From contig JAMPKT010000123.1 of the NCBI GenBank assembly GCA_040004055.1, positions 1-20,167 on the forward strand: 20,167 bases of DNA. Direction: 5' to 3'. Of this stretch, positions 603-16,033 are shown piece after piece. Numbering within the stretch: the first letter of the stretch is position 1; every line of letters begins with the position of its first letter. The notes under the pieces were generated by a model. That model searched no databases. It saw nothing but the letters and a program-made list of their open reading frames with translations, and was not told the origin of the DNA. A program made the position numbers and the translations under genes. The DNA is from Microcoleus vaginatus DQ-U2 (lineage in GTDB: Bacteria; Cyanobacteriota; Cyanobacteriia; Cyanobacteriales; Microcoleaceae).

Positions 603-872
603 ATGTTCAGCATTGACATCATTGTGAAAAATACGCCCGTCTCGCTGTCGGTGCAGCGGAAGTTGGAGGAGGACGCTGAGACTGTTTACCAGCAGGTGCT
701 GGCGGCGATTCGCAACTCCCAACCGCAAATTTTGGAACTCACCTGCGAGAAAAATCCTGAGAAAAAGGTGGCTGTACTCAGCAGCGAAATTTCTGGGGTG
801 GTGGTTTCTCAGAAATCGGGGGCGTCATCTACAGGCAGATCCCCTGGTTTTGTCTCGATGACAGCAGAATGA
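603..872 (+). CDS. Small conserved hypothetical protein (89 aa), translationally coupled to the downstream ABC ATPase
   Basis: The ORF is clean and has a non-repetitive, globular-looking composition. Its stop overlaps the next start (ATGA at 869-872). The pattern of a beta-strand-like N-terminus, an acidic helix, then ...ELTCEKNPEKKVAVL... loosely recalls the small DUF3107-type proteins, but this is unverified. Confidence 0.6.
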   Translation: MFSIDIIVKNTPVSLSVQRKLEEDAETVYQQVLAAIRNSQPQILELTCEKNPEKKVAVLSSEISGVVVSQKSGASSTGRSPGFVSMTAE

Positions 873-1567
873 GGGCTGGGGGTGTTGGTGCCGATATGAG
901 CCAGTCAGCGGTTGCTGTGCGGGATTTGGGTTTTTGCTGGCCGTCTGGCGATCAAGTGTTGCAAGGTTGCTCTCTGGATGTACCTAAGGGCGAGTTTTGG
1001 ATGCTTTTGGGCACTAACGGCAGCGGCAAGTCTACGCTGTTGAGGCTGATGGCTGGGCTGCTGCACCCCCAGTCGGGGGAAATTGACCTCGGCGGGCGGG
1101 TGGGGTTTGTGTTTCAAAACCCCGATCACCAATTGGTGATGCCGACGGTGGGTGCGGATGTGGCTTTTGGTTTGGTGGAGGAAAAGCTTTCTAACGTTCA
1201 GGTGCGGGAGAGGGTGGCGGAGGCTTTGGAGGCTGTGAATTTGCTGGATTTGCAGCGGCGGCCGATTTATGCTTTGAGTGGGGGCCAGAAGCAGCGCATT
1301 GCCCTGGCTGGGGCGATCGCCCGTCACTGCGAAATTCTGCTGTTGGATGAACCGACGGCTTTGTTAGATCCTGATTCTCAGTTGGATTTGGTGGCGGCGG
1401 TGCAGCGGTTGGTGAAAAATCGCGGGATTACGGCTTTGTGGGTGACTCACCGTTTGGATGAGTTGAATTATTGTGATGGGGCTTTTTTGTTGGAAAAGGG
1501 CGAAGTGGTCGATCGGGGAGATCCGGCGCGTTTGAAGCAGCGGTTGATGCAAAGTCAAGATGTTTAG
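869..1567 (+). CDS. ABC transporter ATP-binding protein, ECF/CbiO-like ATPase
   Basis: Motifs present: Walker A GTNGSGKST, Q-loop FQNPDHQ, ABC signature LSGGQKQR, Walker B ILLLDEPT and H-loop VTHR. An alternative start is the ATG at 896. Confidence 0.9.
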   Translation: MRAGGVGADMSQSAVAVRDLGFCWPSGDQVLQGCSLDVPKGEFWMLLGTNGSGKSTLLRLMAGLLHPQSGEIDLGGRVGFVFQNPDHQLVMPTVGADVAFGLVEEKLSNVQVRERVAEALEAVNLLDLQRRPIYALSGGQKQRIALAGAIARHCEILLLDEPTALLDPDSQLDLVAAVQRLVKNRGITALWVTHRLDELNYCDGAFLLEKGEVVDRGDPARLKQRLMQSQDV

Positions 1568-1666: not shown

Positions 1667-2455
1667 TCAATCTCGCAATCCTCGATCGCGCAACCAAGCA
1701 TCTGCCCAAATTGTATCGGCTTCTGACAGCGGTGGTATGACTTCCCAGTTGCGATAATCTATCTTCAGGTCGTAACTTGCTATGTCGTAAATTTGAGTGA
1801 ATAATTCCTGCAAATTGATTATAGGTTCGGTATCGCCCGAGCGCAGTGGTAAAGGAAAGGCAGGCAGCGGGCTCTGCAGGTTAAAAGCGTACAAATCTGC
1901 TCTGGGACGGCGATTTCCCCGACACACCAAAACGCTATAGTGGCTTTCAATGTCATTGCCAATAACTGGCATTTTTTGACCGCGCCGCAATAAATCTATT
2001 TCAATTAAATGAGTGCGGCTACCTAAAATTTCTTCTCGCTTTTCTTCGTACATTTGTCGTCCTTTTCCGGTGCGCTTATTGCTAGGTGAGAGGATTTCAA
2101 TCAGTGTGATTAATTCTTGGTTTCCTCTTTCTCTAATTTCTAAATAGCCTTCCCGAACCTGGTAGGGCATGGGAATATTTACTGTCAAGGGTTGGGTTGG
2201 TGGCGCTGCAACTGCTACGTTTGATGTGATTAATTCGGTTGTGGTTCTTGGCTGAATTACGTTTACATCAGGAATGCCAATTGATAAATTGTCGTCAGCG
2301 GTTTCATAGATTCTCACTTCCAAGGAGACTAAATACTTAGGACGAAGTTGGGGAGACAAAAATCTAAAAATTTCACTAATTAACAAGTGGTGTAGGGCGG
2401 GCCAGAGTTCTGGATGCTCTAAATACGGGTCCATACCAGGAAAGGGAGATGGCAT
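1667..2455 (-). CDS. DUF4058 family protein (Uma2/PD-(D/E)xK restriction-endonuclease-like fold)
   Basis: The N-terminus MPSPFPGMDPYLEHPELWPALHH is the hallmark of cyanobacterial DUF4058 proteins. The internal IEILSPSNK and IEIDLLR motifs resemble the Uma2-type nuclease core. Confidence 0.8.
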   Translation of the reverse strand: MPSPFPGMDPYLEHPELWPALHHLLISEIFRFLSPQLRPKYLVSLEVRIYETADDNLSIGIPDVNVIQPRTTTELITSNVAVAAPPTQPLTVNIPMPYQVREGYLEIRERGNQELITLIEILSPSNKRTGKGRQMYEEKREEILGSRTHLIEIDLLRRGQKMPVIGNDIESHYSVLVCRGNRRPRADLYAFNLQSPLPAFPLPLRSGDTEPIINLQELFTQIYDIASYDLKIDYRNWEVIPPLSEADTIWADAWLRDRGLRD

Positions 2456-3176: not shown

Positions 3177-3283
3177 AGGACTTACGCACGGGTGGTCAGA
3201 AACCGGGTTTTTGCGGGAATACTTCGCTACAGTCAGCAGATTTCGTAAAAACCAGGTTTCTCGGTGTCGAAGCGCGCAAGTCC
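3177..3283. mobile_element. MITE-like hairpin element, copy 1
   Basis: Terminal inverted repeats are aggacttacgca ... gcgcgcaagtcc. The internal long inverted repeat is cagaaaccgggttttt ... aaaaaccaggtttctc. By eye it is about 80% identical to copy 3 at 6537-6642. Confidence 0.7.
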
Positions 3284-3378
3284 TCGTGGTCAGAAACCGG
3301 GTTTTTTTGCATCAGACTTCGTTACAGCCCGCCTCCAAGGTAAAAAACCCGGTTTCGAGGAGTCGGAGTGCGTCGAAA
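3284..3378. mobile_element. MITE-like hairpin element, copy 2 (abuts copy 1, termini degenerate)
   Basis: The copy reads tcgtggtcagaaaccgggttttttt...acttcgttacagcccgc...ggtaaaaaacccggtttc. It has the same core as copies 1 and 3 and lacks a clean left terminal repeat. Confidence 0.6.
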
Positions 3379-3480
3379 ACAAACTGATTTGTCGCTCTTT
3401 GCAGTAAAAAAATATGGATATTGGAATTTTCCGGCTGTAGACTAGAGTCAGGAGTTTTTCAGTCTGCCGGAGTTATATCA

Positions 3481-3972
3481 ATGCCAATTAATCGGCTGTC
3501 TCAAATTGAAGAAAACTTGGAATTGCTGCAAGAGCAATTAGGGGGCAAGGAGAATGCTCTAATTTTAGCAGCGCCAGAAGAAGAGATCCGAATTAACCAG
3601 CAAATCCGAAAGCTACGCAAGAAGATTCGGGAGCAGGAAGAGGAGTATTGGCAGGTTGTCGCTCAGCAAACGAAAACGGTGGAAATTCCCGAACATGAGG
3701 CTGAGATTATTGTTGCCGAGATTGTCAAAGAAGTTGGGCAATTTGAAGTGCAGGGACAGTATTCAGATGAAGTGCTTCAGATTTTGCAGGAGATTCGGGA
3801 CAAGCTAAACCAACCGGGAGCGACAGCGGCTGCGAAACTTAAAGGCGTAATCTCAAGCATTCCGCCGTTTGTGGGAATTTCCTACGAGGCTGAATTGGAT
3901 ACAGAGAATATTTTCCACCGGCATTTTCCAACGTTTCGGAAATGGGCTAAGGTATTAGCAAAAAAGTCATAG
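3481..3972 (+). CDS. Coiled-coil protein with a C-terminal hydrophobic-hairpin module (163 aa); candidate effector or effector-adaptor of the downstream NB-ARC protein
   Basis: The ATG at 3481 has GGAG 8 nt upstream, so the TTG at 3421 in the track is less likely to be the start. The N-terminus (INRLSQIEENLELLQEQL...IRKLRKKIREQEEEYW) is charged and has heptad character. The tail PGATAAAKLKGVISSIPPFVGISYEAELDTENIF resembles, from memory, the EACC1-type module described in NTPase conflict systems. That resemblance is unverified. Confidence 0.65.
   Translation: MPINRLSQIEENLELLQEQLGGKENALILAAPEEEIRINQQIRKLRKKIREQEEEYWQVVAQQTKTVEIPEHEAEIIVAEIVKEVGQFEVQGQYSDEVLQILQEIRDKLNQPGATAAAKLKGVISSIPPFVGISYEAELDTENIFHRHFPTFRKWAKVLAKKS
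3960..3966 (+). promoter_or_regulatory. Candidate -1 frameshift / homopolymer slippage site A_AAA_AAG joining ORF 3481-3972 to the NB-ARC frame
   Basis: The zero-frame codons are GCA AAA AAG TCA TAG. A -1 slip continues with GTC ATA GAC..., which is exactly the frame of the 4077 ORF. The potential stem 3971-3979 agacctgga / 3995-4003 tccaggttt starts 4 nt downstream. Confidence 0.4.
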
Positions 3973-4076
3973 ACCTGGAGCGAAAAACACCCAATCCAGG
4001 TTTCACAAGTTTTTACCAACTTTACGATATTCCCTCCGAACTCGGTTCAAAAAACTTTGTCGGGCGGGATGAGGAA

Positions 4077-6500
4077 ATGCAGCAGTTGCACGCATTGTTG
4101 CAGGATGGAAGCCGTGTTGCCATTGCCGCTGCGTCGGGAATGGGCGGCATCGGCAAGACAGAATTGGCATGGCAGTATGCAAACTTTCACCGCGAACACA
4201 ATACCTATCCAGCAGGGATTTGGTGGCTGTTTGTCCGGGACAACGATTTAGCACCGCAGGTGTTGCAGAAAGCGCTGCGAATGGGAATTCAGCCGCCGGA
4301 TACTCTCGACAATCTGGAGGAACGGTTGCAGTTTTGCTACCAAGAGTGGGCAAAAAAAACCTCTGGCAATGCTCTGCTGGTATTGGATGATGTCAGCGAT
4401 TACCGCGCGGTGCAGCCGTTGCTGCCTAGAAATCCCCGCTTTAAAGTGTTGCTGACAGCGCGACAAATTGTGCCGCCGCCTGTGGGGTGTTTGCCGTTAA
4501 AAGTGTTGAAACCAGAGGCGGCGCTAAACTTGCTGCGGCTGACGGCTGGGGATTTGCCGGGAAACGGGCTGGGACGGATTGATGCCCAGCTTGAAGATGC
4601 TCAAGCCCTTTGCCAGTGGTTAGATTATTTGCCTTTGGGTATCGAACTGGTGGGGCGCTATCTGCGGCGCAAGCGGGCGCTGTCCTTGGCAGAAATGCTG
4701 GAACGGTTGCAGAGTCAGCGATTGGAGGCGCGGGCATTGCAGGAGGCGGAAGCTGGGATGACGGCTAGGCGCGGAGTGGTGGCAGCTTTTGAGTTGAGTT
4801 GGGCGGAGTTGAAACCTCCGGCGCGGACGCTGGGGTGTCTGCTGAGCGTATTTGCTCAGGCTCCGATTCCTTGGGAGTTGGTAGCTGAGTGTTTGCCGGA
4901 TTGGGATGAGGAGGAGTTGGAGGATTGTCGGGATTACGAACTGCTGGAACAGAGTTTGCTGTCGCTGGTGGAGGATGAAAGCTCAGATCCGGCTCAATCT
5001 GGGCTGGTGCAGCCACGCTATCAACTTCATGCTTTGATTCGGGAGTTTTTTGCAGTCAAATTGCAGGAACGCGCCGATGCTGAGGATTTGCGGAGAAGTT
5101 TTGCTCTGGCGTTGACAGTGGTGGCAAAGACGATTCCGCAGACTGTGACGCTGGAGGTGCAGCAACGGGTGAAGGAGGCGCTGCCCCATTTGGAGGTGGT
5201 GGCGGAGCAATGGTCGCATTTGCTGGAAGATAGCACTGATGCTATGGGGTCTTTCACGGTCTTAGCGTGGGTTGCCGAGGGGCAGAGTTTGTGGGCAGAG
5301 GCCGAAAAGTGGTTCAAAGCTTGCCTCCAGATGACAGAGAAATGCTGCGGAGCTGACCATCCCAATACGGCAATGAGTTTGAACAATCTGGCATTGCTTT
5401 ATTATGCAATGGGTCGCTACCCGAAAGCGGAACCCTTGTATGTGCGATCGCTCGCGATTAGAGAGCAGAAGCTAGGAGCAGAACATCCCTATACGGCAAT
5501 GAGTTTGAACAATCTGGCAGCGCTTTACTGTGCAATGGGACGCTACCCGGAGGCAGAACCTTTGTATGTGCGATCGCTCTCTATCTATGAGCAGCAGCTA
5601 GGAGCAGAACATCCCGATACGGCATTGAGTTTGAACAATCTGGCAGAGCTTTACAAAGCAATGGGACGCTACGCGGAGGCGGAACCCTTGTATGTGCGAT
5701 CGCTCGCGATCAGAGAGCAGAAGCTAGGAGCAGAACATCCCTATACGGCAAGTAGTTTGAACAATCTGGCAGAGCTGTACTATGGAATGAGACGCTACCA
5801 GGAGGCGGAACCTTTGTATGTGCGATCGCTCTCTATCAACGAGCTGCTGTTCGGAGCCGACCATCCTCATACGGCAACGAGTTTGAATAATCTGGCAGAG
5901 CTGTACCGTGCAATGGGAAGCTACCCGGAAGCGGAACGCTTGTATGTGCGATCGCTCTCTATCTATGAGCAGCAGCTCGGAGCCGACCATCCCAATACGG
6001 CAAAGAGTTTGAACAATCTGGCAGGGCTATACGAGTCAATGGGACGCTACCCGGAAGCAGAACCCTTGTATGTGCGATCGCTCTCTATCAACGAGCAGCA
6101 GCTCGGAGCCGACCATCCTCATACGGCAACGAGTTTGAACAATCTGGCAAATCTGTACCATGCAATGGGACGCTACCCCGAGGCGGAACCCTTGCTAGTG
6201 CGATCGCTCACGATTAACGAGCAGCAGTTCGGAGCCGACCATCCCACTACGGCAATGAGTTTGAACAATCTGGCATGGCTCTACTATGCAATGGGTCGCT
6301 ACCCGGAGGCAGAACCGTTTTTTCTGGGAGCATTAGAAATCTTGTTTAACCAATTGGGGAAGAATCATCCCAACACCCAAAGAGTTTGTAGGAATTTCAT
6401 TAATTTTCTCCAGCAGGCCATATCAACTGGTCAAGACTCGAAACTTTCCCAGCATCCAACAACGCAAGCAATGCTTAAGCGAGTTCGGGAGACGGAGTAG
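4077..6500 (+). CDS. NB-ARC (STAND, NLR-like) ATPase with C-terminal KLC-type TPR repeats. Coordinates run from the first ATG; the frame is open from 3951.
   Basis: Motifs present: P-loop GMGGIGKTELA (4137-4169), Walker B ALLVLDDV, KVLLTAR (RNBS-B-like) and LDYLPLGIELVG (GLPL-like). These are followed by 8 x 42-aa repeats G-A-D/E-HP-x-TA-x-SLNNLA-x-LY-x-AMGRYPEAEPLYVRSL plus a degenerate cap. The conserved pre-P-loop segment NFVGRDEE lies upstream of the ATG, so the true N-terminus is probably further 5'. Confidence 0.9.
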   Translation: MQQLHALLQDGSRVAIAAASGMGGIGKTELAWQYANFHREHNTYPAGIWWLFVRDNDLAPQVLQKALRMGIQPPDTLDNLEERLQFCYQEWAKKTSGNALLVLDDVSDYRAVQPLLPRNPRFKVLLTARQIVPPPVGCLPLKVLKPEAALNLLRLTAGDLPGNGLGRIDAQLEDAQALCQWLDYLPLGIELVGRYLRRKRALSLAEMLERLQSQRLEARALQEAEAGMTARRGVVAAFELSWAELKPPARTLGCLLSVFAQAPIPWELVAECLPDWDEEELEDCRDYELLEQSLLSLVEDESSDPAQSGLVQPRYQLHALIREFFAVKLQERADAEDLRRSFALALTVVAKTIPQTVTLEVQQRVKEALPHLEVVAEQWSHLLEDSTDAMGSFTVLAWVAEGQSLWAEAEKWFKACLQMTEKCCGADHPNTAMSLNNLALLYYAMGRYPKAEPLYVRSLAIREQKLGAEHPYTAMSLNNLAALYCAMGRYPEAEPLYVRSLSIYEQQLGAEHPDTALSLNNLAELYKAMGRYAEAEPLYVRSLAIREQKLGAEHPYTASSLNNLAELYYGMRRYQEAEPLYVRSLSINELLFGADHPHTATSLNNLAELYRAMGSYPEAERLYVRSLSIYEQQLGADHPNTAKSLNNLAGLYESMGRYPEAEPLYVRSLSINEQQLGADHPHTATSLNNLANLYHAMGRYPEAEPLLVRSLTINEQQFGADHPTTAMSLNNLAWLYYAMGRYPEAEPFFLGALEILFNQLGKNHPNTQRVCRNFINFLQQAISTGQDSKLSQHPTTQAMLKRVRETE
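5349..6356 (+). repeat. Tandem array of eight 126-bp units encoding the TPR repeats
   Basis: Unit starts are at 5349, 5475, 5601, 5727, 5853, 5979, 6105 and 6231, an exact 126-bp period. Each unit contains gtgcgatcgctc, which is a HIP1 site. Confidence 0.95.
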
Positions 6501-6536
6501 CTGTTGCTGCTAGAGCGATTGTTGCCAATTTCCTAC

Positions 6537-6642
6537 AGGACTTACGCATGGGGCCCAGAAACCGGGTTTTTTCCAGAATACTTCGTTACAGCCCGCAGAC
6601 TCGGTAAAAAACCCGGTTTCTCTGACGAAGCGCATAAGTCCC
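6537..6642. mobile_element. MITE-like hairpin element, copy 3
   Basis: The copy reads aggacttacgcatggggcccagaaaccgggtttttt...acttcgttacagcccgc...ggtaaaaaacccggtttctctgacgaagcgcataagtcc. Terminal and internal inverted repeats are intact. Confidence 0.75.
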
Positions 6643-6791
6643 GATCGCATTAAAAAGAGATAAGTTGCGATTTTTCGTTTGGTGGGGGCGGGTTTTTGAG
6701 ATTGTCTATCTGTGTCATAAAGGGTTGAAAAAACCCGCCGCTACAGGTCTATCGAGGATGCGCGAGATTTAAGATTTTACGGTTGATTCCC

Positions 6792-8300
6792 CTACTTCAT
6801 CTCATATCCAAACAAATTCGGATCGACTTCTCCCAAATTCAAATCTGCCAAACCATACTCGGCCCAACGCCTTTCTACCATCGCGGCCACATCCGGATCT
6901 GACTCCAAAACTTCCCCCCACTCGTGATCGGTTTCCGGCGGCATCTTCGTAGTAGCATCAATCCCCATTCTGCCTCCCAAACCAATCTTTTCACTGGCAA
7001 AATCTAAGGTATCAAAGGGCGTATTCGGCAGAATAAACACATCCCGAACCGGATCGACTTTAGAACTAATTGCCCAAACTACTTGACGCGGGTCGCGAAT
7101 GTTGATACTTTTATCGACAACAATCACAAACTTAGTGTAAGTAAACTGCGGTAATGCACTCCAAAATGCTAAAGCAGCCCTGCGCGCTTGACCGGGATAT
7201 GCTTTATCGATCGAGATAATTGCCGCTTTATAACTCAGCGCTTCCATCGGTAAGAAGAAATCGACAATTTCCGATACTTGCTGCCGCAAAATAGGGGTAT
7301 AAATACGGTTAAGCGCGATCGCCATCATTGCTTCTTCTTTCGGCGGCCGCCCGCTAAATGTGGTCAGATAAATCGGGTCTTTGCGGTGCGTCATGCAGTG
7401 GAACCGCACCAACGGCGAATCTTCCACGCCGCCGTAATAACCCATGTGATCCCCGAAGGGCCCGTCGGGCAGAACTTCCCCCGGCGTAATCGTTCCTTCT
7501 AACACGATTTCCGAGTCTGCCGGTACTTCCAAATCTACGGTTTTGCACTTCGCCAATTGCACGCCGGAACCGCCGTAAAGTCCGGCAAATAACCATTCCG
7601 ATAAATCTACAGGAATTGGGGTTGCTGCGGCGAGGATAATCAGGGGATCGACTCCAAGGGCGATCGCAACTTCCAACTTTTTACCAGCCTGCGCCGCTTT
7701 CCGCAAGTGCCGCGCCCCTCCCCGCACCGATAACCAGTGTACAGTCATCGTGTTTTTTGACTGCAACTGCAACCGATAAACCCCCACATTCGGCGTACCG
7801 GTTTCGCAATCTTTGGTAATTACCAAACCCAGGGTGATAATTTTGCCCGCATCTCCCGGATAAGGGCGAATCATCGGGATTTTGTTCAAATCCAGCCCTT
7901 GTCCCTCAAGTACCACTTGCTGACAAGCTGGGAAAAAGTCTCGGCCGGGTTTGGCTTTCACTACGTCAAACAGCACTTTGCCGAATTCTATGGCTTGGGA
8001 AATCTTTTTCGGCGGTTTCGGCTGTTGCAGCATTCCCAGTTTTTTGCCGAGCTCTTCTAGTTCGATCGGCTTTTCCATGTTCATCGCCCAGCAAACGCGC
8101 TGTTCCGTGCCCAACAGGTTAATTGCGACGGGGAAATCTGCCCCTTTGACGTTTTCAAACAGCAATCCGGGGCCGCCTTTTTGCAGCATTTGGTTGGAAA
8201 TTTCGGCAATTTCGAGGTCGGAATCGACTAAAGCGCTAATCCGGCGCAGTTGTCCCCGTTCTTCGAGTAGTTTTAGGAATCCCCGCAAGTCTCTAGCCAT
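6792..8300 (-). CDS. ubiD: UbiD-family (prenylated-FMN dependent) aromatic decarboxylase; 4-hydroxybenzoate decarboxylase type of quinone biosynthesis
   Basis: The 502-aa protein starts MARDLRGFLKLLEERGQLRRISALVD...GGPGLLFENVKG. It also has ...GDHMGYYGG... and a length typical of UbiD. Confidence 0.88.
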   Translation of the reverse strand: MARDLRGFLKLLEERGQLRRISALVDSDLEIAEISNQMLQKGGPGLLFENVKGADFPVAINLLGTEQRVCWAMNMEKPIELEELGKKLGMLQQPKPPKKISQAIEFGKVLFDVVKAKPGRDFFPACQQVVLEGQGLDLNKIPMIRPYPGDAGKIITLGLVITKDCETGTPNVGVYRLQLQSKNTMTVHWLSVRGGARHLRKAAQAGKKLEVAIALGVDPLIILAAATPIPVDLSEWLFAGLYGGSGVQLAKCKTVDLEVPADSEIVLEGTITPGEVLPDGPFGDHMGYYGGVEDSPLVRFHCMTHRKDPIYLTTFSGRPPKEEAMMAIALNRIYTPILRQQVSEIVDFFLPMEALSYKAAIISIDKAYPGQARRAALAFWSALPQFTYTKFVIVVDKSINIRDPRQVVWAISSKVDPVRDVFILPNTPFDTLDFASEKIGLGGRMGIDATTKMPPETDHEWGEVLESDPDVAAMVERRWAEYGLADLNLGEVDPNLFGYEMK

Positions 8301-8395
8301 TTTTTTTAAGAATTGTTAACGTTCTTTTGTTATTATGAGCCGATCGACTGCCACAAGTTACTCCTGAACCGCTCAAAAGATACGTATTTAACGAA

Positions 8396-8438
8396 CCGCG
8401 AAGACGCGAAGGGCGCGAAGGAAGAGAAAGAAGAAGAT
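8396..8438. repeat. Short tandem repeat (GCGAAGNN, 8-9 bp period) followed by a purine-rich tract
   Basis: The sequence is ccgcgaagacgcgaagggcgcgaaggaagagaaagaagaaga. Its reverse complement aligns with 14527-14565. Confidence 0.75.
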
Positions 8439-8475
8439 AGGTAATGCCTTGTTCGGTTCGGGAGTAGGCTGCATA

Positions 8476-9660
8476 ATGGGTTACATGAAATGTCCAAGAT
8501 GCGAATCTGACCAAGTTCGTAAAAACGGCCGTCCCAACGGGCACCAGCGGTATCTTTGCAAAGCTTGCCGCCAACATTTTTTTGAGCGGTTGAGTCCGCA
8601 GTCTTTCAGTCGCAAATGCACCGAAACACGGTTAAGCGAAGCTATCCCGAAGGAAATCGCCCCTGCAACCACCACAGAGTCAGGCGGAATTGCGATTTTG
8701 CTGTTAGATGCCGAAAATCTGAAACTTAAGGTTAATACAGAACAATTTTTAGCCGATTTGTGCGACTATCCCCTGCAAGTTAAAATTGCTTTTGCTAACT
8801 GGAAAAACCCGAGTATCGGCAAGTTGGATGCTGAACTTTACGATCGCGGTTACGAACTGATTCACGTTCCGGGCGGTGCTAATAGTGCTGATGGTAAAAT
8901 GATTGCTTTTGGCGCTGCTATGTTATACCGCTATCGGGATGTCAAACAAGTGTTTGTCTGTTCTTCGGATGGTTTGTTAAATCATCTTTGCAATCAGTTG
9001 CAAAATCAGGGAGTGACTGTGTTTCGGGTGCGACGGCAAAATGCTGTGTTGTCTGTAGAAAATCCTCTGACTGGTGATACTCATCATTATTCTTGTGAGA
9101 GGGAACTGGAAATCCCTAGTTTTGAAGAATTGGCTAATCAAGTTGCAGAGTTGTTGAAGGCTGAACACAAATCTATTGAGGAGCGAATCGCTCGTTTTTC
9201 TAGTGTGGCGGAGCTTTTTCAAGAGCGCCGAACTGTTGCTTTCACTTCTACAACTTCCCCTGCAGCAGCACTGTCGCAGTCAGTACAAAACGAAGTTACC
9301 CCGGTGTCTGAAGCATCTTTGGCTTCTGTTGCTGTCAATCAAAATTTGCAAGAAATAATTCCAGATCTCAATTCAAATCCTATTGAGTCCCTGGATGTTT
9401 TAAAATATATACTTGTGGAAATAATTGAAACGGCAAAAGTTGAGTTAAAAGAAGATTCTATTCCTGTGGCAATAATTAAGAAAAAGTTTTTTGCCAAATA
9501 TCAGTTTCATGCTGATTTAATTGTCAAACAATTGTTGGGGAATAATTCCAGTCTAATCAAATTATTCCAGTCAGAATCGGCGGATTTTAAAATAAAATTA
9601 ATCGGTAGCGAACATCAAGTGGCAATCATTCCAAAGATTGAAAGTTCAGAAGAAGAATAA
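8476..9660 (+). CDS. Zinc-ribbon (IS1 InsA-like) plus NYN/LabA-like PIN-fold ribonuclease domain protein with a C-terminal OST-HTH/LOTUS-like region
   Basis: The N-terminus is CPRCESDQVRKNGRPNGHQRYLCKACRQHF (C4 ribbon, GHQRYLC as in InsA). The NYN core has LLLDAEN, ANSADGKMI and VCSSDGLL acidic motifs. The start could be the ATG at 8476 or at 8485. GGAG lies at 8460-8463. Confidence 0.8.
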   Translation: MGYMKCPRCESDQVRKNGRPNGHQRYLCKACRQHFFERLSPQSFSRKCTETRLSEAIPKEIAPATTTESGGIAILLLDAENLKLKVNTEQFLADLCDYPLQVKIAFANWKNPSIGKLDAELYDRGYELIHVPGGANSADGKMIAFGAAMLYRYRDVKQVFVCSSDGLLNHLCNQLQNQGVTVFRVRRQNAVLSVENPLTGDTHHYSCERELEIPSFEELANQVAELLKAEHKSIEERIARFSSVAELFQERRTVAFTSTTSPAAALSQSVQNEVTPVSEASLASVAVNQNLQEIIPDLNSNPIESLDVLKYILVEIIETAKVELKEDSIPVAIIKKKFFAKYQFHADLIVKQLLGNNSSLIKLFQSESADFKIKLIGSEHQVAIIPKIESSEEE

Positions 9661-9667
9661 CATTTAT

Positions 9668-9698
9668 GAAGTGGCGATCGCACTTCCCTAGCTTTTTT
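9668..9698 (+). terminator. Possible intrinsic terminator after the NYN gene
   Basis: The hairpin is gaagtg-gcgatcg-cacttc, followed 6 nt later by tttttt. The stem is short and the spacing to the T-tract is not ideal. Confidence 0.35.
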
Positions 9699-9856
9699 AT
9701 AAATACGGCCCTACCTGCGCTATAAATCGCCCGCCAAGCCGTGCGGAATTAGCGGAGTGCGATCGGAAAAATATTTTTTCCGGCGAGCGCCTATTTCGAG
9801 GGTCAACCCTACGCGTAATAACTCCAATATAACTTGCAGCAGTTACCCCTCAAAAC

Positions 9857-9970
9857 CTTAATCTAATGTTAACCATAATTTCAAATAAGCTTATTGTTAT
9901 TGCAGCCATTTCTTAAGAGTTAAAAGTTTAATCTAAAATTAACCATAATTTAAAACAAGCTTATTGTTTT
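9857..9970 (+). promoter_or_regulatory. Two arrays of Pho boxes (SphR/PhoB-type) upstream of pstS
   Basis: Array A boxes are CTTAATCT (9857), gttaacca (9868), tttcaaat (9879) and cttattgt (9890). Array B boxes are TTTAATCT (9927), attaacca (9938), tttaaaac (9949) and cttattgt (9960). Within each array the 8-bp boxes are spaced by 3 bp (11-bp phasing), which fits the cyanobacterial PyTTAAPyPy(T/A) consensus. Confidence 0.6.
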
Positions 9971-10049
9971 CTAGGTCTTTACTTAGGGATTTCAGTCTAT
10001 CCTATGTAGGGATTCCCAAAGCCTGCTATCAATATTGAGGACGACAATT

Positions 10050-11078
10050 ATGACTTTCTTCACAGCACGTTGGCGGCGTGCTTTTATAGTTACGCTAGCG
10101 GTAGCAGCATTTTCGCTCTCGTTGATTACTTCTGCTGTAGCTGCTGTCACACTAAACGGTTCGGGAGCAACTTTCCCTAAACCTCTTTACGATCGCTACT
10201 TCTCTCAGATGAGAAGTGCAAATCAAATTACTGTAAACTACGAAGGAACTGGCAGCGGTGCTGGCATCAAAGCATTAATTGCAGGCACTGTTGATTTCGC
10301 AGGCAGCGACGCGCTGATGACGGCGGCGCAAATCGCTGAGGTAAAGCGCGGCGTCATGGCAGTTCCGACTGCTGGCGGCGCTGTTGCAGTTGTCTACAAC
10401 TTGCCCGGAGTGACGAATCTGAGGCTAAATAACGATGCGATGAAAGGCATCTTTGAAGGCAAGATTACTCGCTGGAATGATGCGAAAATAGCCGGAATTT
10501 CTGGACAAGCTAAAAACTTGCCAAATACTCCCATTCGAGTAGCTGTACGCGCAGATAGCAGCGGTACAACTTTTATTTTTGCTAACCACTTGCAGGCGAC
10601 CGGTAGCAGCATCAAAGCTGCCTCTCAGCCGAGTTGGCCAGGAAGCCCTGTCAGCGGTCAAGGAAACCCCGGCGTAGCTGCTTTGGTGAAAAATACAGCG
10701 GGTGCGATCGGCTACGTTCAAGATACTTTTGCTCGGCAAAACAATCTCCAAACAGCATTTATTCAAAATAAAGCTGGCCGATTTGTAGATCCTAGCTTGG
10801 CTGAAGCAGAGAAAGCTTTAGCAGGGGAAACATTCCCCGCAGACTTCCGCTTAGTAGAAGGCAATCCTAACGACGGCTATCCGATTGTTGGTTTGACTTG
10901 GCTGTTAATCTACAAACAGTATCCTGCTGCGAAAGCAGAGGCTATTAAAAAGATGGTTAATTGGGTGATGACTACAGGTCAAGGTATCAACAAACAGCTA
11001 GAGTTTACTCAGATTCCTTCACCTACAGCTCAAAAGGTGGTTCAAACAGTTAATCAGACTGTGGTTGCCAGAGGTTAA
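10050..11078 (+). CDS. pstS: Phosphate ABC transporter substrate-binding protein PstS
   Basis: The protein has a signal-peptide-like N-terminus and then LNGSGATFPKPLYDRYF and GTGSGAGIKAL, both typical of PstS. The ATG at 10050 has GAGGA 8 nt upstream. The TTG at 10035 in the track is less likely to be the start. Confidence 0.9.
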   Translation: MTFFTARWRRAFIVTLAVAAFSLSLITSAVAAVTLNGSGATFPKPLYDRYFSQMRSANQITVNYEGTGSGAGIKALIAGTVDFAGSDALMTAAQIAEVKRGVMAVPTAGGAVAVVYNLPGVTNLRLNNDAMKGIFEGKITRWNDAKIAGISGQAKNLPNTPIRVAVRADSSGTTFIFANHLQATGSSIKAASQPSWPGSPVSGQGNPGVAALVKNTAGAIGYVQDTFARQNNLQTAFIQNKAGRFVDPSLAEAEKALAGETFPADFRLVEGNPNDGYPIVGLTWLLIYKQYPAAKAEAIKKMVNWVMTTGQGINKQLEFTQIPSPTAQKVVQTVNQTVVARG

Positions 11079-11170
11079 TTCCGGCGATCGCACGGGGTTA
11101 GGAGTTGACGAGTTAAATGTATGACTCAAAACTCATAAATTATCAGGTTAATGTGCGCTAAATTTACTGT

Positions 11171-11195
11171 GTAAGGTACGCATTGCGTACCTTAC
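11171..11195 (+). other. Perfect hairpin (11-bp stem, 3-nt loop) in the pstS-pstC intercistronic spacer
   Basis: The sequence is gtaaggtacgc-att-gcgtaccttac. No U-tract follows. Confidence 0.5.
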
Positions 11196-11280
11196 AAACC
11201 AAGGTCGCAGCGCGCCCCCAGCCCATTACAATTCCTCGTCCTTTAAGCAAATATTTCACTGTGTACGCACTAATTTCGGT

Positions 11281-12282
11281 ATGACCAATATTTCAAAAAA
11301 ACCGAAGAAATTGACTCGGAAAACGACAGAAATAAACACAGAAGTAGATTTGACAGATACTGCTGGTGAAGGTCTATGGATGGAGTCAGGATTTACACTA
11401 TTTGTATGGGGTTTTGCCCTAGTGACAGCGGGCACGTTGTTTTGGATGAGTGCGGTAATTTTTAAAGATGCTTGGCCTGCTATTAGCAAATTTGGACTCT
11501 CATTCTTGTGGAATCCCAAGTGGGATATCGGCGAGTTGCAGTTTGGGGCTTTGCCGTTTATTTACGGTACTGTAATTAGTTCTGCGATCGGCATAATCAT
11601 CGCACTTCCTTTAGGGCTGTCAGTAGCTATAGTTACTAGCGAGAACTTCTTACCCGTTTGGGTGCGATCGCCCTTGGGATTCATGGTTGAATTAATCGCG
11701 GCTATTCCCAGCGTGATAGTTGGCCTGTGGGGAATCTTTGTTTTGATTCCCTTTTTGTTGCCATTGCAGCAGTCATTGTTCGATAATTTCAGTTGGTTTC
11801 CCCTGTTCAGCAGCGAACCTTTAGGCCCCGGAATGCTCCCAGCCGGAATACTGTTATCAATTATGATTTTGCCAACAGTAGCCGCCATCAGCCGCGAGGT
11901 ATTGATGTCAGTTCCAGTAGATTTGCGAAGTGCTTCCATGTCCCTCGGTGCCACCCGCTGGGAAACAATATTTAAGCTGTTATTGCCAGCAGCTAGTTCG
12001 GGGATTATCGGCGCCACCATATTAGCATTGGGACGCGCTTTAGGCGAAACAATGGCAGTCACAATGGTAATTGGCAACTCGATTCAAATTAACTCATCCC
12101 TGCTCGCTCCCAGCTACTCAATTCCTGCTGTTTTGGCAAGTCAATTTCGGGAAGCTGTCGAACCGCTGCACACCGGCGCTTTGATGTATTTAGCCTTAAT
12201 TTTATTTGTGATCACTTTGTTGGTAAATGCGATCGCAGTATTGTTAGTTCAGCTAATTGGCGCCAAGGGAGCTAAAAATTAG
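11281..12282 (+). CDS. pstC: Phosphate ABC transporter permease PstC
   Basis: This is a multi-TM protein with the EAA-type loop SMSLGATRWETIFKLLLPAASSGI. It occupies the expected position in a pstSCAB operon. Confidence 0.9.
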   Translation: MTNISKKPKKLTRKTTEINTEVDLTDTAGEGLWMESGFTLFVWGFALVTAGTLFWMSAVIFKDAWPAISKFGLSFLWNPKWDIGELQFGALPFIYGTVISSAIGIIIALPLGLSVAIVTSENFLPVWVRSPLGFMVELIAAIPSVIVGLWGIFVLIPFLLPLQQSLFDNFSWFPLFSSEPLGPGMLPAGILLSIMILPTVAAISREVLMSVPVDLRSASMSLGATRWETIFKLLLPAASSGIIGATILALGRALGETMAVTMVIGNSIQINSSLLAPSYSIPAVLASQFREAVEPLHTGALMYLALILFVITLLVNAIAVLLVQLIGAKGAKN

Positions 12283-12364
12283 CATCATCGAAAGCAATTT
12301 GGTCACAAGCCGCGCCGCCGGATTTACCCGCTGGTTCAATCTCAAATCTCAAATCTCAAATCGC

Positions 12365-13345
12365 ATGACTCAAGCAAAAAAAATAGACAGTATTCTGGAT
12401 GCAGAAATCAACAACCCCCTGTCGCTAAGCAGAACTTTTTTCAGCCGGGGAATGACAGTTATCGCTTTCGCTCTGACAGCTCTCGCCCTGCTCCCTTTGT
12501 TTGCTATTTTATACAAAATCCTGGGGGAAGGACTCACACATTTGAGCTGGGAAGTGCTAGTGTCTCTACCAGCACCCGTCGGAGTAGAAGACCAGCCCAA
12601 CGGCTTTGCAAATGCGATTCTCGGCACGGCTTTAATGGTGGGAATTGCTACATTAATCAGCGTACCCATAGGCGTAATGACGGGAATATTTTTGTCGGAG
12701 TTTGGTAGAGAAAACAAAGCGATTACCAATACTATTCGCTTTATCACTGTCATTCTCAGCAGCGTCCCTTCGATCGTAGTTGGCGTCTTTTCCTACGCCC
12801 TAATTGTCGTTACCACCAAAGCCTTTTCAGGAGTAGCAGGCGGTTTTGCCCTCGCCGTCATCATGCTTCCAGTTGTTGCTCTGACAACAGAACAAGCATT
12901 AAAATTAGTGCCTACTTCTTACCGCCTCGCTTCTGCTGGTTTGGGAGGCGGACGCTTTCAGACTATGTTTCGGATTATCATACCCTCAGCACTTCCAACT
13001 ATTACCACAGGTATTTTACTCGCTGCTTCCCGGGCCGCCGGCGAAACCGCACCGTTGATAGTAACTGCCTTGTCAAGTCAATTTTGGCCTCCTTTAGTTG
13101 ATAAGTTGGGCGAGATAATGCAGTCCCCCATAGGTGCAGAAACTATCTCAAAACTCAAAGAAATTCCCGAGACACTGCTAACTCCGACTCCTTCTATGTC
13201 GGTATTAATATATAGCTACGCCAGCTCTCCTTACAAGGAGCAGAACGAATTGGCGTGGACTGCTGCCTCTGTCCTTTTGGGCATGGTTTTGATTGCTAGC
13301 GTCGCATCCCGTACAGTAACTCGGAAACGCTTGCAAAACCGATAA
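12365..13345 (+). CDS. pstA: Phosphate ABC transporter permease PstA
   Basis: This is a multi-TM protein containing ASAGLGGGRFQTMFRIIIPSALP and ASRAAGETAPLIVTA. The ATG at 12365 is preferred over the track start at 12257, which overlaps pstC. Confidence 0.88.
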   Translation: MTQAKKIDSILDAEINNPLSLSRTFFSRGMTVIAFALTALALLPLFAILYKILGEGLTHLSWEVLVSLPAPVGVEDQPNGFANAILGTALMVGIATLISVPIGVMTGIFLSEFGRENKAITNTIRFITVILSSVPSIVVGVFSYALIVVTTKAFSGVAGGFALAVIMLPVVALTTEQALKLVPTSYRLASAGLGGGRFQTMFRIIIPSALPTITTGILLAASRAAGETAPLIVTALSSQFWPPLVDKLGEIMQSPIGAETISKLKEIPETLLTPTPSMSVLIYSYASSPYKEQNELAWTAASVLLGMVLIASVASRTVTRKRLQNR

Positions 13346-13401
13346 ATCAATAACTAAAGTGCATCTCTCAGTCAAATATTAACCATATAACCAGGCAAAT
13401 A

Positions 13402-14253
13402 ATGAAACCTAAAGCTAACTTGAAATCAGAAAACTATACAGATCAATTCCTAGACGATGCCACCCCGGAAATTGACCCCCATGCACTCCCAGCATTGCGG
13501 GTTCAGGACTTGAGTTTTTCCTACGGCACTCACAAAGTCCTCGAAAATTTATCCATGAATATTCCTCACCCACAAGTTACGGCTATTATTGGCCCATCAG
13601 GTTGTGGCAAATCCACTTTTCTCAAAGCTCTAAACCGGATTGGTGAATTGGAGGGAAAAGTTAAAATTGAAGGAAGAGTAGAGTTTTTTGGACAAGATAT
13701 TTACAGCCCGAAAGTAAACATTAATAGTTTGCGCCGCCAAATTGGGATGGTGTTTCAAAGACCAAATCCTTTTCCGCTGAGCATCTACGATAATATTGCT
13801 TACGGGGTGAGGATTTTTGGTCGCAAAAGCAAAGCAGAATTAGATGAAATTGTGGAATCTGCACTCAAAAGTGCGGCGCTTTGGAATGAAGTCAAAGACG
13901 ATTTGAAAAAATCGGCTCAGGGGATTTCGGGGGGACAGCAGCAGCGACTTTGTATTGCTCGCGCTTTGGCTGTGAAGCCGAAAATTTTGCTGATGGATGA
14001 ACCTTGTTCTGCTCTAGATCCGATTTCAACGATGAAGATTGAGGAGTTATTTCAGACTCTGCGGCAGCAGTTAACTGTTGTGATTGTGACGCACAATATG
14101 CAGCAGGCTGCTCGCGTTTCTGATTACACGGCCTTTTTTAATACTGATGAAAGTCGCATCGGTCGCATGGTTGAATTTGGGCCGACAAGTAAGATTTTTA
14201 CTTCGGCGGGCAATTCGAGTACGAGAGATTACATTCAAGGCCGTTTCGGTTAA
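13402..14253 (+). CDS. pstB: Phosphate ABC transporter ATP-binding protein PstB
   Basis: Motifs present: Walker A GPSGCGKST, MVFQRPNPFPLSIYDNIAYG (PstB-specific), signature ISGGQQQRLCIARA and Walker B ILLMDEP. Confidence 0.95.
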   Translation: MKPKANLKSENYTDQFLDDATPEIDPHALPALRVQDLSFSYGTHKVLENLSMNIPHPQVTAIIGPSGCGKSTFLKALNRIGELEGKVKIEGRVEFFGQDIYSPKVNINSLRRQIGMVFQRPNPFPLSIYDNIAYGVRIFGRKSKAELDEIVESALKSAALWNEVKDDLKKSAQGISGGQQQRLCIARALAVKPKILLMDEPCSALDPISTMKIEELFQTLRQQLTVVIVTHNMQQAARVSDYTAFFNTDESRIGRMVEFGPTSKIFTSAGNSSTRDYIQGRFG

Positions 14254-14761: not shown

Positions 14762-16033
14762 ATGTCTTCACCACTTCTTAAGCGAGAGTTAGGTGTTTTC
14801 GGCGCAACTCTCATGGGCCTGGGCTCAATCCTCGGTACTGGGGTATTTGTGAGTATCGGCATTGCTGCGGAAGTTGCTGGGCCGGGGGTGATTTTGGCTG
14901 TAGGTATTGCAGCTTTTGTTGCTGTTTGCAATGGCCTTAACAGCGCTCAATTAGCGGCAAATCATCCTGTTAGCGGCGGTACTTATGAATATGGCTACAA
15001 ATATCTCAATCCTTGGCTGGGTTTCACTGCCGGCTGGATGTTTTTGTTGGCGAAAACGGCTTCTGCGGCTACTGCTGCTTTAGGTTTTGCGGGGTATTTT
15101 TTAAATGCAGTTGGTGTAGCCGATCGCACTTACTCGATCCTAACAGCTTTAGTCGCCGTCGCCACCATCACTTTAATTGTATTGACGGGAATTAGGCGAT
15201 CGAATATTGCCAATACTGCCATAGTCTCAGTTACACTTCTATCCTTAGCGGTGTTTGTTGCTGTCGGTTTGCCAGAGGTAAGGTGGGAAATGGCCGCGCT
15301 ACAGAATCATAGCTCGATCGGCTCCATCTTCCAGGCCACCGCCCTGATGTTTGTCGCTTATAGCGGTTACGCCCGCATCACCACAATGAGCGAGGAAGTG
15401 CGGGAACCGAGGGAAACCATTCCCAAAGCCATAATTTTCACTTTGGTGCTGACAATGCTGCTTTACGTGGGGGTAGCAGTAGTTGTCGCGGGCGCGGGGG
15501 GAGCCGCTAAATTGTCGTTACAAACAGGCGGCACGGCTGCACCTCTGGAAGTCATCGCCCGGAGTTTCCGAATTCCGGGAGTTTCTCAACTGCTAGCCGT
15601 CGGCGCAATTACCGCTATGTTGGGAGTCTTGCTGAACTTAATTTTAGGGCTGTCGCGCATCTGGCTGGCGATGGGGCGGCGCTTGGATATGCCGAGAGTC
15701 TTGGCGCGGCTGAATCCTTCGGGGACAACTCCCTACGTGGCTGTGGTGGTTGTGGAAGTTACGATCGCACTTTTAATCCTCGTCGGCGATGTCAAAACCA
15801 CTTGGTCATTTAGCGCTTTTAGCGTTTTGATATATTACGCTATCACCAACCTCGCCGCGCTGCAACTTTCCCCCGCCGAAAGGCTTTATCCGCAGTGGTT
15901 GGCTTGGGTTGGTTTGGGCAATTGTCTGTTTCTGGCTTTCTGGGTGGAGAGGCAAATTTGGCTGACAGGATTGGCATTAATTGCCGCCGGTTTAATTTGG
16001 CGGGCGATCGTCCGACTCCCGGCGAGAAACTAG
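14762..16033 (+). CDS. APC-superfamily amino acid/polyamine permease
   Basis: This is a 423-aa polytopic membrane protein. The N-terminal LGVFGATLMGLGSILGTGVFVSIG motif and about 12 hydrophobic segments are typical of APC permeases. Confidence 0.85.
   Translation: MSSPLLKRELGVFGATLMGLGSILGTGVFVSIGIAAEVAGPGVILAVGIAAFVAVCNGLNSAQLAANHPVSGGTYEYGYKYLNPWLGFTAGWMFLLAKTASAATAALGFAGYFLNAVGVADRTYSILTALVAVATITLIVLTGIRRSNIANTAIVSVTLLSLAVFVAVGLPEVRWEMAALQNHSSIGSIFQATALMFVAYSGYARITTMSEEVREPRETIPKAIIFTLVLTMLLYVGVAVVVAGAGGAAKLSLQTGGTAAPLEVIARSFRIPGVSQLLAVGAITAMLGVLLNLILGLSRIWLAMGRRLDMPRVLARLNPSGTTPYVAVVVVEVTIALLILVGDVKTTWSFSAFSVLIYYAITNLAALQLSPAERLYPQWLAWVGLGNCLFLAFWVERQIWLTGLALIAAGLIWRAIVRLPARN

Follow-up and report, generated by a model that had tools for sequence, protein, structure and literature searches.

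Is the short open reading frame (ORF) that lies directly upstream of an NLR-like receptor gene in Microcoleus vaginatus DQ-U2 a gene of its own, or is it the N-terminal domain of that receptor, encoded in another frame and joined to it during expression? The locus lies in the stretch of 20,167 nucleotides (nt) that we analyzed (contig JAMPKT010000123.1, positions 1 to 20,167; hereafter the window, to which coordinates refer unless another locus is named) and comprises a first ORF, ORF-A, followed by a long ORF with an NB-ARC ATPase domain and an array of tetratricopeptide repeats (TPRs). An initial annotation, made from the letters of the window alone, had described a simple two-gene pair in which the NLR lacks an N-terminal domain of its own; this description has to be revised, as ORF-A appears to be the N-terminal domain of the NLR, linked to it by a conserved -1 site. 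We consider it very probable, from sequence comparison, that the locus is one recoded gene with its two frames joined at a slippery heptamer, and comparative evidence shows the predicted 1006-residue N-domain-NB-ARC-TPR protein to be a selected product. The recoding event itself is likely to be ribosomal and, with only a little less assurance, we favor programmed -1 frameshifting, which would yield both a free N-domain and an N-domain-NLR fusion in a ratio set by the efficiency of the shift.

In the window, the 3' end of ORF-A reads gcA AAA AAG tca TAG; 3 nt separate the heptamer A_AAA_AAG, which follows the X_XXY_YYZ register of ORF-A, from the stop, and it lies at the overlap of the two ORFs. 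The open stretch of the NB-ARC frame spans 3951-6500, the preceding in-frame stop being at 3948-3950; neither this upstream extension to about 3951 nor the slippery end of ORF-A had been mentioned in the initial annotation. A -1 slip at the heptamer would continue as GUC AUA GAC... (VIDLER...), giving a conceptual fusion of ORF-A residues 1-162, a 37-residue linker, the NB-ARC domain and the TPRs. The same heptamer is the -1 slippery sequence of E. coli dnaX (PMC3711429) and of many insertion sequence (IS) elements (PMC2246112). Upstream of ORF-A, GGAG is found at 3469-3472, 8 nt 5' of the ATG, and no terminator-like site was found between ORF-A and the NB-ARC ORF.

The linker between the heptamer and ATG 4077, the first ATG of the NB-ARC frame, is informative in this respect. 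We compared these 111 nt (in the window nt 3966-4076, encoding for example TPNPGFTSFYQLYDIPSELGSK in the -1 frame) among 21 unique Microcoleus-type sequences. In the NB-ARC frame there was neither an ATG, GTG or TTG codon in any of the 21 relatives nor a single stop, while each of the other frames contained 1-3 stops; pairwise codon differences amounted to 751 synonymous vs. 528 non-synonymous in the NB-ARC frame, compared to 71:1228 and 278:1061 in the other two. These data suggest that the linker is translated in the -1 frame without any canonical start serving it; a start-less segment that shows coding-type substitutions in the -1 frame only is most readily explained by ribosomes that frameshift into it from ORF-A. 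Just 5' of ATG 4077 the NB-ARC frame reads ...KKVIDLERKTPNPGFTSFYQLYDIPSELGSKNFVGRDEEMQQL, which includes FVGRDEE. As FVGRDEE-x-QL is the usual start of a STAND module, initiation at ATG 4077 would cut into the domain.

These features bear directly on the reading of the locus as two genes, whereby the NB-ARC-TPR protein would start at ATG 4077 or at a non-canonical codon of the linker, ORF-A would be a separate partner or effector, and the heptamer would merely encode Lys-Lys. Gene callers do annotate two proteins, and GAGGAA precedes ATG 4077; however, a spacing of only 0-2 nt separates this GAGGAA from the ATG, its codons specify the conserved DEE of FVGRDEE, and the 37 codons 5' of ATG 4077 are under purifying selection while being devoid of start codons in the relatives. 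Two genes would also fit those lineages with a canonical start near the ORF-A stop, as well as the loci in which the NB-ARC ORF has its own ATG after insertion of a ParE gene (the L064 type, described below). Against this stand three further observations, detailed in the following paragraphs: 1) the wobble base before Lys-Lys is always A regardless of which of at least five amino acids it belongs to, for which a protein-level KK motif cannot account; 2) the -1 frame is always long and the +1 frame always short; 3) in-frame fusions occur across the same junction. Taken together, we judge the existence of two independent genes to be decidedly improbable.

How widely is the heptamer kept? ORF-A has 398 homologues at E<=1e-3, nearly all free-standing proteins of 163 residues with 71-95% identity and mostly from Microcoleus; K161 and K162 are invariant among the close ones. 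A genome-locus search with a narrow alignment, which returned almost only Microcoleus, showed the heptamer at the same codons in 14 of 16 loci, with a stop two codons on and a -1 frame extending 730-940 residues into the NB-ARC ORF. A profile search of 1.84 billion representative sequences (E<=1e-3) yielded 269 family members, mostly 160-175 residues long, and among the best 150 representatives (<=50% identity) 60 ended in KK or KKx, an ending expected in about 1%. Scanning metagenomes with an 11-sequence alignment retrieved 61 loci with 41-86% ORF-A identity to the window, 60 of which were analyzed: 58 harbored an in-frame A_AAA_AAG (in a few A_AAA_AAA) 0-3 codons before the ORF-A stop, and in the same 58 the -1 frame opened just 5' of the stop and ran into a long ORF. 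In these loci the +1 frame was always short.

When all loci were clustered at 70% identity, 21 clusters resulted, and 19 of them, sharing <70% identity, had kept the heptamer. The residue before KK in these 19 clusters is Ala, Leu, Pro, Val, Thr or Lys, and its wobble base is A in every one (19/19, against a background of 28% at four-fold sites; naive P~3e-11). The first Lys codon is likewise AAA in 19/19 (background 61%) and the second is AAG in 15 and AAA in 4. An invariant wobble A, whatever the amino acid, indicates selection on the nucleotides and not on a Lys-Lys terminus. A homologue without a downstream partner ORF (L014) has lost the heptamer and ends CTA GGA GAA AAC TCA TAG; it is carried, together with a second copy of the ORF-A domain (L012), by the metagenome-assembled genome GFS_6261. 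At L014, whose ORF-A homologue is 62% identical, a tandem array of the heptanucleotide type GGGCATA/GGGCATT (at ~1170-1260) takes the place of the partner.

The taxonomic breadth of the family rests on look-ups in Stenomitos and Phormidium and on unlabelled metagenome contigs. The same arrangement with an NB-ARC-TPR partner in the -1 frame is present in Stenomitos frigidus ULC029 (L079, on chromosome record CP170648.1) and in Phormidium sp. CLA17 (L080); with homologues in Microcoleus, Stenomitos and Phormidium, the placement of the locus in a filamentous cyanobacterium by the initial annotation was correct. In the Phormidium sequence an intact 681-residue NB-ARC-TPR -1 ORF (5480-7522) has no gene call, from which it is evident that gene callers drop or split such loci. 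At 7701-9739 of the Stenomitos locus, the NB-ARC-TPR gene is followed by a series of small toxin-antitoxin-like ORFs with DUF4160, DUF2442, DUF2283 and HicA_toxin.

An intact NLR gene split by a frameshift mutation, or by a homopolymer sequencing error, would also present as two overlapping frames. Truncated -1 ORFs, as in L015 (stop 18 residues past the heptamer), L019 and L033, and the uncalled ORF of L080 could be taken as signs of such decay. The same "lesion" nevertheless recurs across 19 divergent lineages and >70 independent assemblies; neither ORF is disrupted in these, purifying selection acts on both, and the site is every time a perfect slippery heptamer. This recurrence excludes a pseudogene or a sequencing error as the explanation for the arrangement, leaving for a decaying gene only an extremely small chance.

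The module that the -1 frame enters differs between lineages, being NB-ARC-TPR in L051, L041, L074, L079 and L080, NACHT in L035 and L063, an nSTAND4-type P-loop protein in L049, NPHP3_N/AAA_16 in L057, GUN4 in L045, VMAP-C in L039 and a TPR protein in L034; all of these are among the modules employed by NTP-dependent conflict systems in multicellular bacteria (PMC7159879, PMC8195603). The peptides right after the shift site resemble the usual linkers preceding STAND modules (e.g. VSIPSIPSNVGKSTVNFVGREDEL and VSASPGTSRGDQEKRIPHNLDQRSTDIFVGREQEL). Natural in-frame fusions confirm, at the level of sequence, the architecture predicted for the trans-frame product. In L042, a single ORF of 729 residues with the junction GCA AAA AAA GCT matches the -1 fusion conceived for L035, which has GCA AAA AAG TCA TAA at this place, with 67% identity over 611 residues that span the junction; similarly, P0178 runs in a single frame through ...ALKKVVGIAPRRIPSNLGSRGIRADSFVGREAEL... 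("...ALKKVVGIAP...FVGREAEL"). Ordinary N-terminal fusions of the ORF-A domain are also found with nSTAND1 (P0184), AAA_16-TPR (P0227), GUN4 (P0196), TIR (P0265) and a periplasmic-binding domain (P0232). The NACHT-type partners of L035 and L042 carry a long C-terminal Gly/Leu/Val repeat (GLVFGLVGGLVVGL...), in appearance a hydrophobic region of multi-pass or repetitive type, which STAND proteins do not usually have.

We lean modestly towards the view that the N-domain, A_AAA_AAG, the stop and often a hairpin form an ancient, family-wide portable cassette with which filamentous cyanobacteria join one adaptor to many sensors.

With regard to how the frames are joined, one criterion that we used for a frameshift site was a stimulatory structure 5-9 nt downstream and/or an upstream element resembling a Shine-Dalgarno (SD) sequence. 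The stem of the candidate hairpin in the window begins 4 nt after the heptamer, with a minimum free energy of -11.6 kcal/mol and z=-3.45 (RNAfold). Comparing the best perfect stem 2-9 nt past the heptamer with those at 300 random positions of the same locus gave P=0.02 for the window and, over the 19 lineages, a Fisher combined P=2e-7, with 8/19 at P<=0.05. The hairpins start 3-7 nt past the heptamer and differ in sequence by lineage, as exemplified by the stem arms CCCUCGAU/GUCGAGGG in L034, CCUUGAUC/GAUCAAGG in L029, GCGCUUCUCCUGGU/AUCAGGAGAAGCGC in L026, UGCCCCUGGCU/AGUCAGGGGCA in L041, GUCUCCCGAUC/GAUCGGGAGAC in L079 and CCCCAGA/UCUGGGG in L063. In 10/19 lineages the zero-frame stop directly abuts the heptamer, and this stop is possibly a stimulator as well. 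It is the classical heptamer in the correct register with a hairpin at the right spacing that makes a ribosomal -1 shift likely.

Joining of the frames by other means, i.e. RNA polymerase slippage on the A-run or a change of run length in the DNA (phase variation), deserves consideration, given that runs of A9-A10 are present in L036, L046 and L049 (...AAAAAAAAAC...), lengths at which transcriptional slippage is known (PMC3711429), and that the in-frame L042 differs from L035 in having A7 in lieu of A6G. In most lineages, however, the run ends with G after A6, a short length for polymerase slippage, and makes up the exact ribosomal heptamer in frame; among the 21 unique Microcoleus sequences there is no polymorphism in the length of the A-run; and the hairpin is enriched at a spacing typical of ribosomal stimulators. 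We hold non-ribosomal recoding to be unlikely overall, and for A6G in particular, but plausible where the run is A9-A10.

Several findings weigh against programmed ribosomal frameshifting in a single gene. First, about half of the 19 lineages lack a significant hairpin in the positional test. Within the Microcoleus cluster the stem is near-invariant, with no compensatory pairs, two or three pair-breaking variants and one that is G-U-compatible; as covariation is absent there, support for the hairpin comes only from the different stems that other lineages have at the same place. Second, the SD-like AAGG located ~8-10 nt upstream in the window is not conserved, being AAAG or absent elsewhere. 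Third, the lineages are not phylogenetically independent, which renders the P values optimistic, with an unambiguous direction. Fourth, some of the metagenome lineages have a canonical start 20-60 nt from the ORF-A stop, where independent initiation is possible. Lastly, an 88-residue ParE-toxin ORF (PF05016, E=1.1e-9) sits between ORF-A and NB-ARC-TPR at 6859-7125 of L064, an insertion also seen in L052, L056, L067, L068, L070 and L076; at these loci ORF-A retains its heptamer and the NB-ARC ORF starts from an ATG of its own, with a new N-terminus, implying that the NLR part can be uncoupled.

The long ORF itself conforms well with what had been claimed for it. The ORFs, the NB-ARC motifs and the TPR repeats listed in the initial annotation were all recovered by Pfam scan and motif search. 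PF00931 (NB-ARC) matched the 807-residue ORF with E=1.4e-13 and 51.2 bits (cutoff 23.5), and the TPR signal was strong (TPR_12 E=8.7e-136, TPR_10 E=2.5e-112). Tandem Repeats Finder delineated 7.7 copies of a 126-nt period with 85% matches at 5348-6316, and the LNNLA anchors of the eight units are spaced by exactly 42 residues. As judged by its NB-ARC motifs, hidden Markov model (HMM) match and C-terminal repeat sensor, the protein is an NLR-like STAND ATPase, in agreement with the initial annotation. Searching the PDB sequences with the NB-ARC half (phmmer) gave zero matches at 1e-3, and in PADLOC-DB 2.0, which includes Avs, only a generic TPR model (1.4e-13) and GajA at chance level (0.0076) were matched. 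The NB-ARC half (4001-5500) exhibits a G-over-C skew of up to 0.27 and a GC content raised to 0.55 vs. its flanks.

The array was also said to be diversifying, and as a pattern this is borne out. Among 114 repeats pooled from 19 Microcoleus-type relatives, 10 of the 42 positions never vary and most of the remainder hardly do, with positions 8, 11, 18, 21 and 40 reaching an entropy of 2.7-3.5 bits. The number of LNNLA-anchored repeats per strain varies from 4 to 10 in these relatives, and the product past the shift site varies among relatives from 730 to 927 residues in steps of ~42. An invariant scaffold with a few hypervariable positions is the pattern known for hypervariable NLR repeat arrays, and the comparison supports a resemblance of the TPR array, as a pattern, to a diversifying sensor.

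What kind of domain, then, does ORF-A encode? An AlphaFold2 model, built with a 38-sequence alignment, is predicted to be an all-alpha bundle of soluble type (mean predicted local distance difference test score, pLDDT, 84.7; predicted template modelling score, pTM, 0.73). Two helices (3-29 and 32-64) form a long hairpin, after which come helices 71-91, 96-110, 116-136, 141-148 and 150-162. No structure in the PDB was found below E=0.17 by Foldseek with this model, and no PDB sequence below E=0.06 with the ORF-A profile. Pfam, NCBIfam and PADLOC returned no family match for ORF-A, only chance-level coiled-coil matches. We conclude that ORF-A defines a new, putative adaptor domain of ~160 residues that lies outside the coverage of Pfam.

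The company kept by the domain is in line with its designation as an adaptor. In addition to its position at STAND N-termini, it is found C-terminal to SEFIR/TIR (P0250), TRADD-N (P0121, P0229), an SNF2 helicase (P0128), NACHT (P0197) and STAS-LRR-Roc-COR (P0211). Occurring at STAND N-termini, in fusions with diverse effector and signaling modules and free-standing, the ORF-A domain does behave, in sequence comparison, like an effector-associated (adaptor) domain (EAD). The association with STAND NTPases predicted earlier for the 163-residue ORF is what we observed, inasmuch as its homologues adjoin STAND modules, being positioned directly 5' of or fused to NB-ARC, NACHT and nSTAND. In P0121, a 406-residue metagenome protein, a TRADD-like N domain (PF20694, E=2.6e-16) precedes the ORF-A domain and the end, ...ALAKKS, is like that of ORF-A in the window; P0121 may correspond to the "TRADD-N next to AP-ATPase-TPR" neighborhoods described previously (PMC8195603). 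By this example, the short product of some strains may itself carry a signaling domain.

As to named families, Pfam includes an EAD9 model from the paper that also described the effector-associated constant component EACC1. Among 38 diverse family members, only one matched EAD9, weakly (E=0.0082, below any cutoff and amid coiled-coil noise), and assignment of ORF-A to one of EAD1-11 was rejected on this account. The initial annotation had likened the tail of ORF-A to EACC1 and viewed it as a possible membrane-inserting or amphipathic hairpin; membrane insertion would make ORF-A a death effector that is released or activated by the NLR and acts by membrane disruption. In plant CC-NLRs and in MLKL/HeLo proteins, membrane pores are formed by helical N-domains. 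The quoted tail, AAAKLKGVISSIPPFVGISYEAELDTENIF, is indeed present within ORF-A, the tail AKLKGVISSIPPFVGISYEAELDTE is the most conserved segment of the family, and the drop in pLDDT to 55-77 there would be compatible with a conformationally labile segment. However, the best mean Kyte-Doolittle hydropathy over 19 residues in ORF-A is 1.04 (TAAAKLKGVISSIPPFVGI), below transmembrane grade, and we have discarded a transmembrane or "hydrophobic hairpin" tail.

The likeness to EACC1 did not hold up either. EACC1 is defined by a conserved transmembrane helix with a central patch of small residues or Gly, together with a caspase-bearing 3' partner that cleaves it (PMC7159879), and it has been shown to form pores upon activation by a protease and to contain beta elements (bioRxiv 10.1101/2025.11.14.688446). 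ORF-A has neither such a helix nor the Gly patch; its model is all-alpha, without beta elements; and no peptidase was found by Pfam in the partner of the window, which matched only NB-ARC and TPR, or in ten -1 partners scanned. The Pfam scans, in which inclusion of an EACC1 model is unconfirmed, gave no EACC1 match for ORF-A at E<=1 or for the 38 members at E<=0.01. Considering also the lack of matches in Pfam, PADLOC and the PDB, we give very little credence to ORF-A as an EACC1-like or membrane-inserting effector.

We propose the following scheme for programmed frameshifting at this locus. ORF-A and NB-ARC-TPR would be carried on one mRNA, with translation starting at ATG 3481; most ribosomes would continue past A_AAA_AAG, stop at UAG 3970 and release the 163-residue helical N-domain. 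A fraction would slip back by 1 nt through tandem re-pairing of tRNA-Lys, as in the dnaX/IS3 type, probably aided by the adjacent stop and by the hairpin at 3971-4003, and would then read the 37-residue linker, NB-ARC and TPRs to yield the 1006-residue NLR-like protein. The efficiency of A_AAA_AAG is governed by the tRNA-Lys repertoire of the host and would be expected to be high in a host that lacks tRNA-Lys(CUU). We surmise that the N-domain is "EAD-like", a module for assembly or a homotypic adaptor. Binding of a ligand to the hypervariable TPRs would lead to oligomerization of NB-ARC and hence to clustering of the fused N-domains, which may then recruit, or nucleate, the free N-domain of the cell along with other N-domain proteins. 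The opposite sign is equally compatible, in which case the free N-domain would act as a brake, akin to the OrfA of IS elements or to CARD-only proteins. The short zero-frame product is most likely functional also, because lineages would otherwise fix the in-frame fusion, as L042 did; any specific role that we might ascribe to it is tentative.

Each component of this arrangement has precedents. The IS3/IS1-family transposases (orfA/orfAB, e.g. IS2, IS150 and IS895) undergo -1 frameshifting on A_AAA_AAG (PMC2246112), and similar to the locus here have this heptamer close to where a short upstream ORF ends, the shift producing a long fusion with a catalytic or NTPase part; their short product, having the same N-terminal interaction domain as the fusion, can regulate the latter, and a downstream hairpin is often present. 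Unlike these transposases, the gene described here encodes a STAND/NLR-like receptor or another conflict module, with an N-domain that is not DNA-binding. With dnaX tau/gamma of E. coli (PMC3711429), the locus has in common the identical heptamer, two products with a common N-terminus at a set ratio and a nearby downstream hairpin; in contrast, the shift in dnaX terminates at once and gives the short product, whereas here it would make the long one, and the SD-like stimulator of dnaX is not conserved here.

Among conflict proteins, the bacterial and cyanobacterial STAND proteins with NB-ARC (AP-ATPase clade) and TPRs (PMC8195603) resemble the receptor in motifs and in C-terminal KLC-type TPRs with hypervariable positions, and the TRADD-N plus AP-ATPase-TPR neighborhoods of the same study are echoed in P0121, where TRADD-N comes before the ORF-A domain. 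Unlike other NB-ARC-TPR proteins, the N-terminal domain would be attached by recoding and not by ordinary fusion. EADs (Kaur et al. 2020, 2021; PMC7159879, PMC8195603) share with ORF-A the location at STAND N-termini, the fusions to TIR, SEFIR, TRADD-N, Roc-COR, SNF2 and GUN4 and the free-standing forms; they differ from ORF-A, which has ~160 residues with a long helical hairpin and is without a Pfam EAD match. The two-gene EACC1-caspase system (PMC7159879) is comparable in having a small conserved 5' ORF beside a larger variable conflict protein in multicellular bacteria. Frameshifting is not mentioned in PMC7159879 or PMC8195603. In literature on STAND, NLR, NACHT and anti-phage proteins, the GeneTack survey, the Atkins 2016 recoding review and a 2025 frameshift survey, we found no report of it for such proteins, coverage being incomplete and the result amounting to absence of evidence only.

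The proposed coexistence of a free N-module with a receptor has counterparts elsewhere. CARD-only and PYD-only proteins and ASC are domain-only regulators or adaptors of eukaryotic NLRs, and in HET-S/NWD2 and BASS, a fungal or bacterial NLR, respectively, has a neighboring gene with which it has a short amyloid motif in common. In such systems the free N-module can be templated, recruited or used as a competitor, and we propose the same logic here. Unlike these examples, both copies would come from one gene and be identical by construction, and the module is a helical domain of ~160 residues, neither a death fold nor an amyloid motif.

Frameshifting on A_AAA_AAG and NB-ARC-TPR receptors are thus already known; what appears to be new is that the two are combined, together with the cassette found throughout the family and the N-domain family itself. 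NLR/STAND receptors are dangerous, and control of their dosage and of their N-terminal signaling domains is central to immunity. If our reading is true, programmed frameshifting would here be described for the first time in an NLR/STAND immune-type receptor of any organism, and a new principle of regulation would be at work, whereby translation fixes the ratio of signaling domain alone to signaling domain on the sensor. If the cassette exists as we envision it, every such gene would emit a free adaptor and an adaptor-tagged receptor that are identical in this domain and stand in a proportion fixed by translation; it is on this proportion that the system would operate, either by nucleated assembly or by buffering of an NLR-like death switch. 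The family would also add a large cellular group, not belonging to mobile elements, to the chromosomal genes of bacteria with -1 frameshifting, of which very few are on record. Because such loci are annotated as "hypothetical protein" plus "TPR protein", or go uncalled, censuses of bacterial NLR architectures miss their N-terminal domains.

Table. Features of the frameshift locus and of the remainder of the window
Feature	Position	Strand	Basis or detail
ORF-A, zero-frame product, predicted helical N-domain (163 aa, 18.8 kDa)	3481-3972	+	ATG 3481, stop TAG 3970-3972
Slippery heptamer A_AAA_AAG, proposed -1 shift site	3960-3966	+	ORF-A frame gcA AAA AAG = A160 K161 K162
Linker in the -1 frame, VIDLERKTPNPGFTSFYQLYDIPSELGSKNFVGRDEE	3966-4076	+	predicted to be translated only by ribosomes entering from ORF-A
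Candidate stimulatory hairpin, AGACCUGGA (3971-3979) with UCCAGGUUU (3995-4003), 15-nt loop	3971-4003	+	RNAfold
Predicted trans-frame product, N-domain-linker-NB-ARC-TPR (1006 aa, 113.7 kDa)	3481-6500	+	codons 3481-3966, then 3966-6497
NB-ARC-TPR ORF as listed (807 aa)	4077-6500	+	first ATG 4077
NB-ARC (AP-ATPase type) NTPase domain	4095-4733	+	Pfam PF00931, aa 7-219
Walker A, GMGGIGKT (aa 21-28)	4137-4160	+	motif
Walker B, LLVLDD (aa 100-105)	4374-4391	+	motif
LLTAR (sensor-1, TAR/TTR; aa 125-129)	4449-4463	+	motif
GLPL-like LPLGIEL (aa 185-191)	4629-4649	+	motif
Eight 42-aa KLC-type TPR units, 126-nt period	5348-6316	+	Tandem Repeats Finder; Pfam
ABC ATPase	869-1567	+	Pfam
DUF4058	1667-2455	-	Pfam
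UbiD	6792-8300	-	Pfam
InsA-type zinc ribbon (PF03811) + NYN ribonuclease domain (PF01936), 403-aa ORF	8449-9660	+	Pfam
pst-like phosphate ABC transporter operon	10035-14253	+	Pfam
Amino-acid permease	14762-16033	+	Pfam

A Pfam scan of the window did not reveal an evident defense island around the ORF-A/NB-ARC locus. The ORF for the zinc-ribbon/NYN protein adjoins an AT-rich stretch (GC 0.38 at 9001-10000), and a 469-residue ORF at 16076-17485, without a Pfam match at 1e-5, lies in a region of strongly negative GC skew. In the intergenic region 5' of ORF-A, a 21-nt direct repeat, GTGGTCAGAAACCGGGTTTTT, is present at 3192-3212 and 3286-3306, with its core inverted as AAAAAACCCGGTTTC at 3342-3356 (100% complementary); these repeats (3192-3356) could represent a small repeat element or a regulatory structure.

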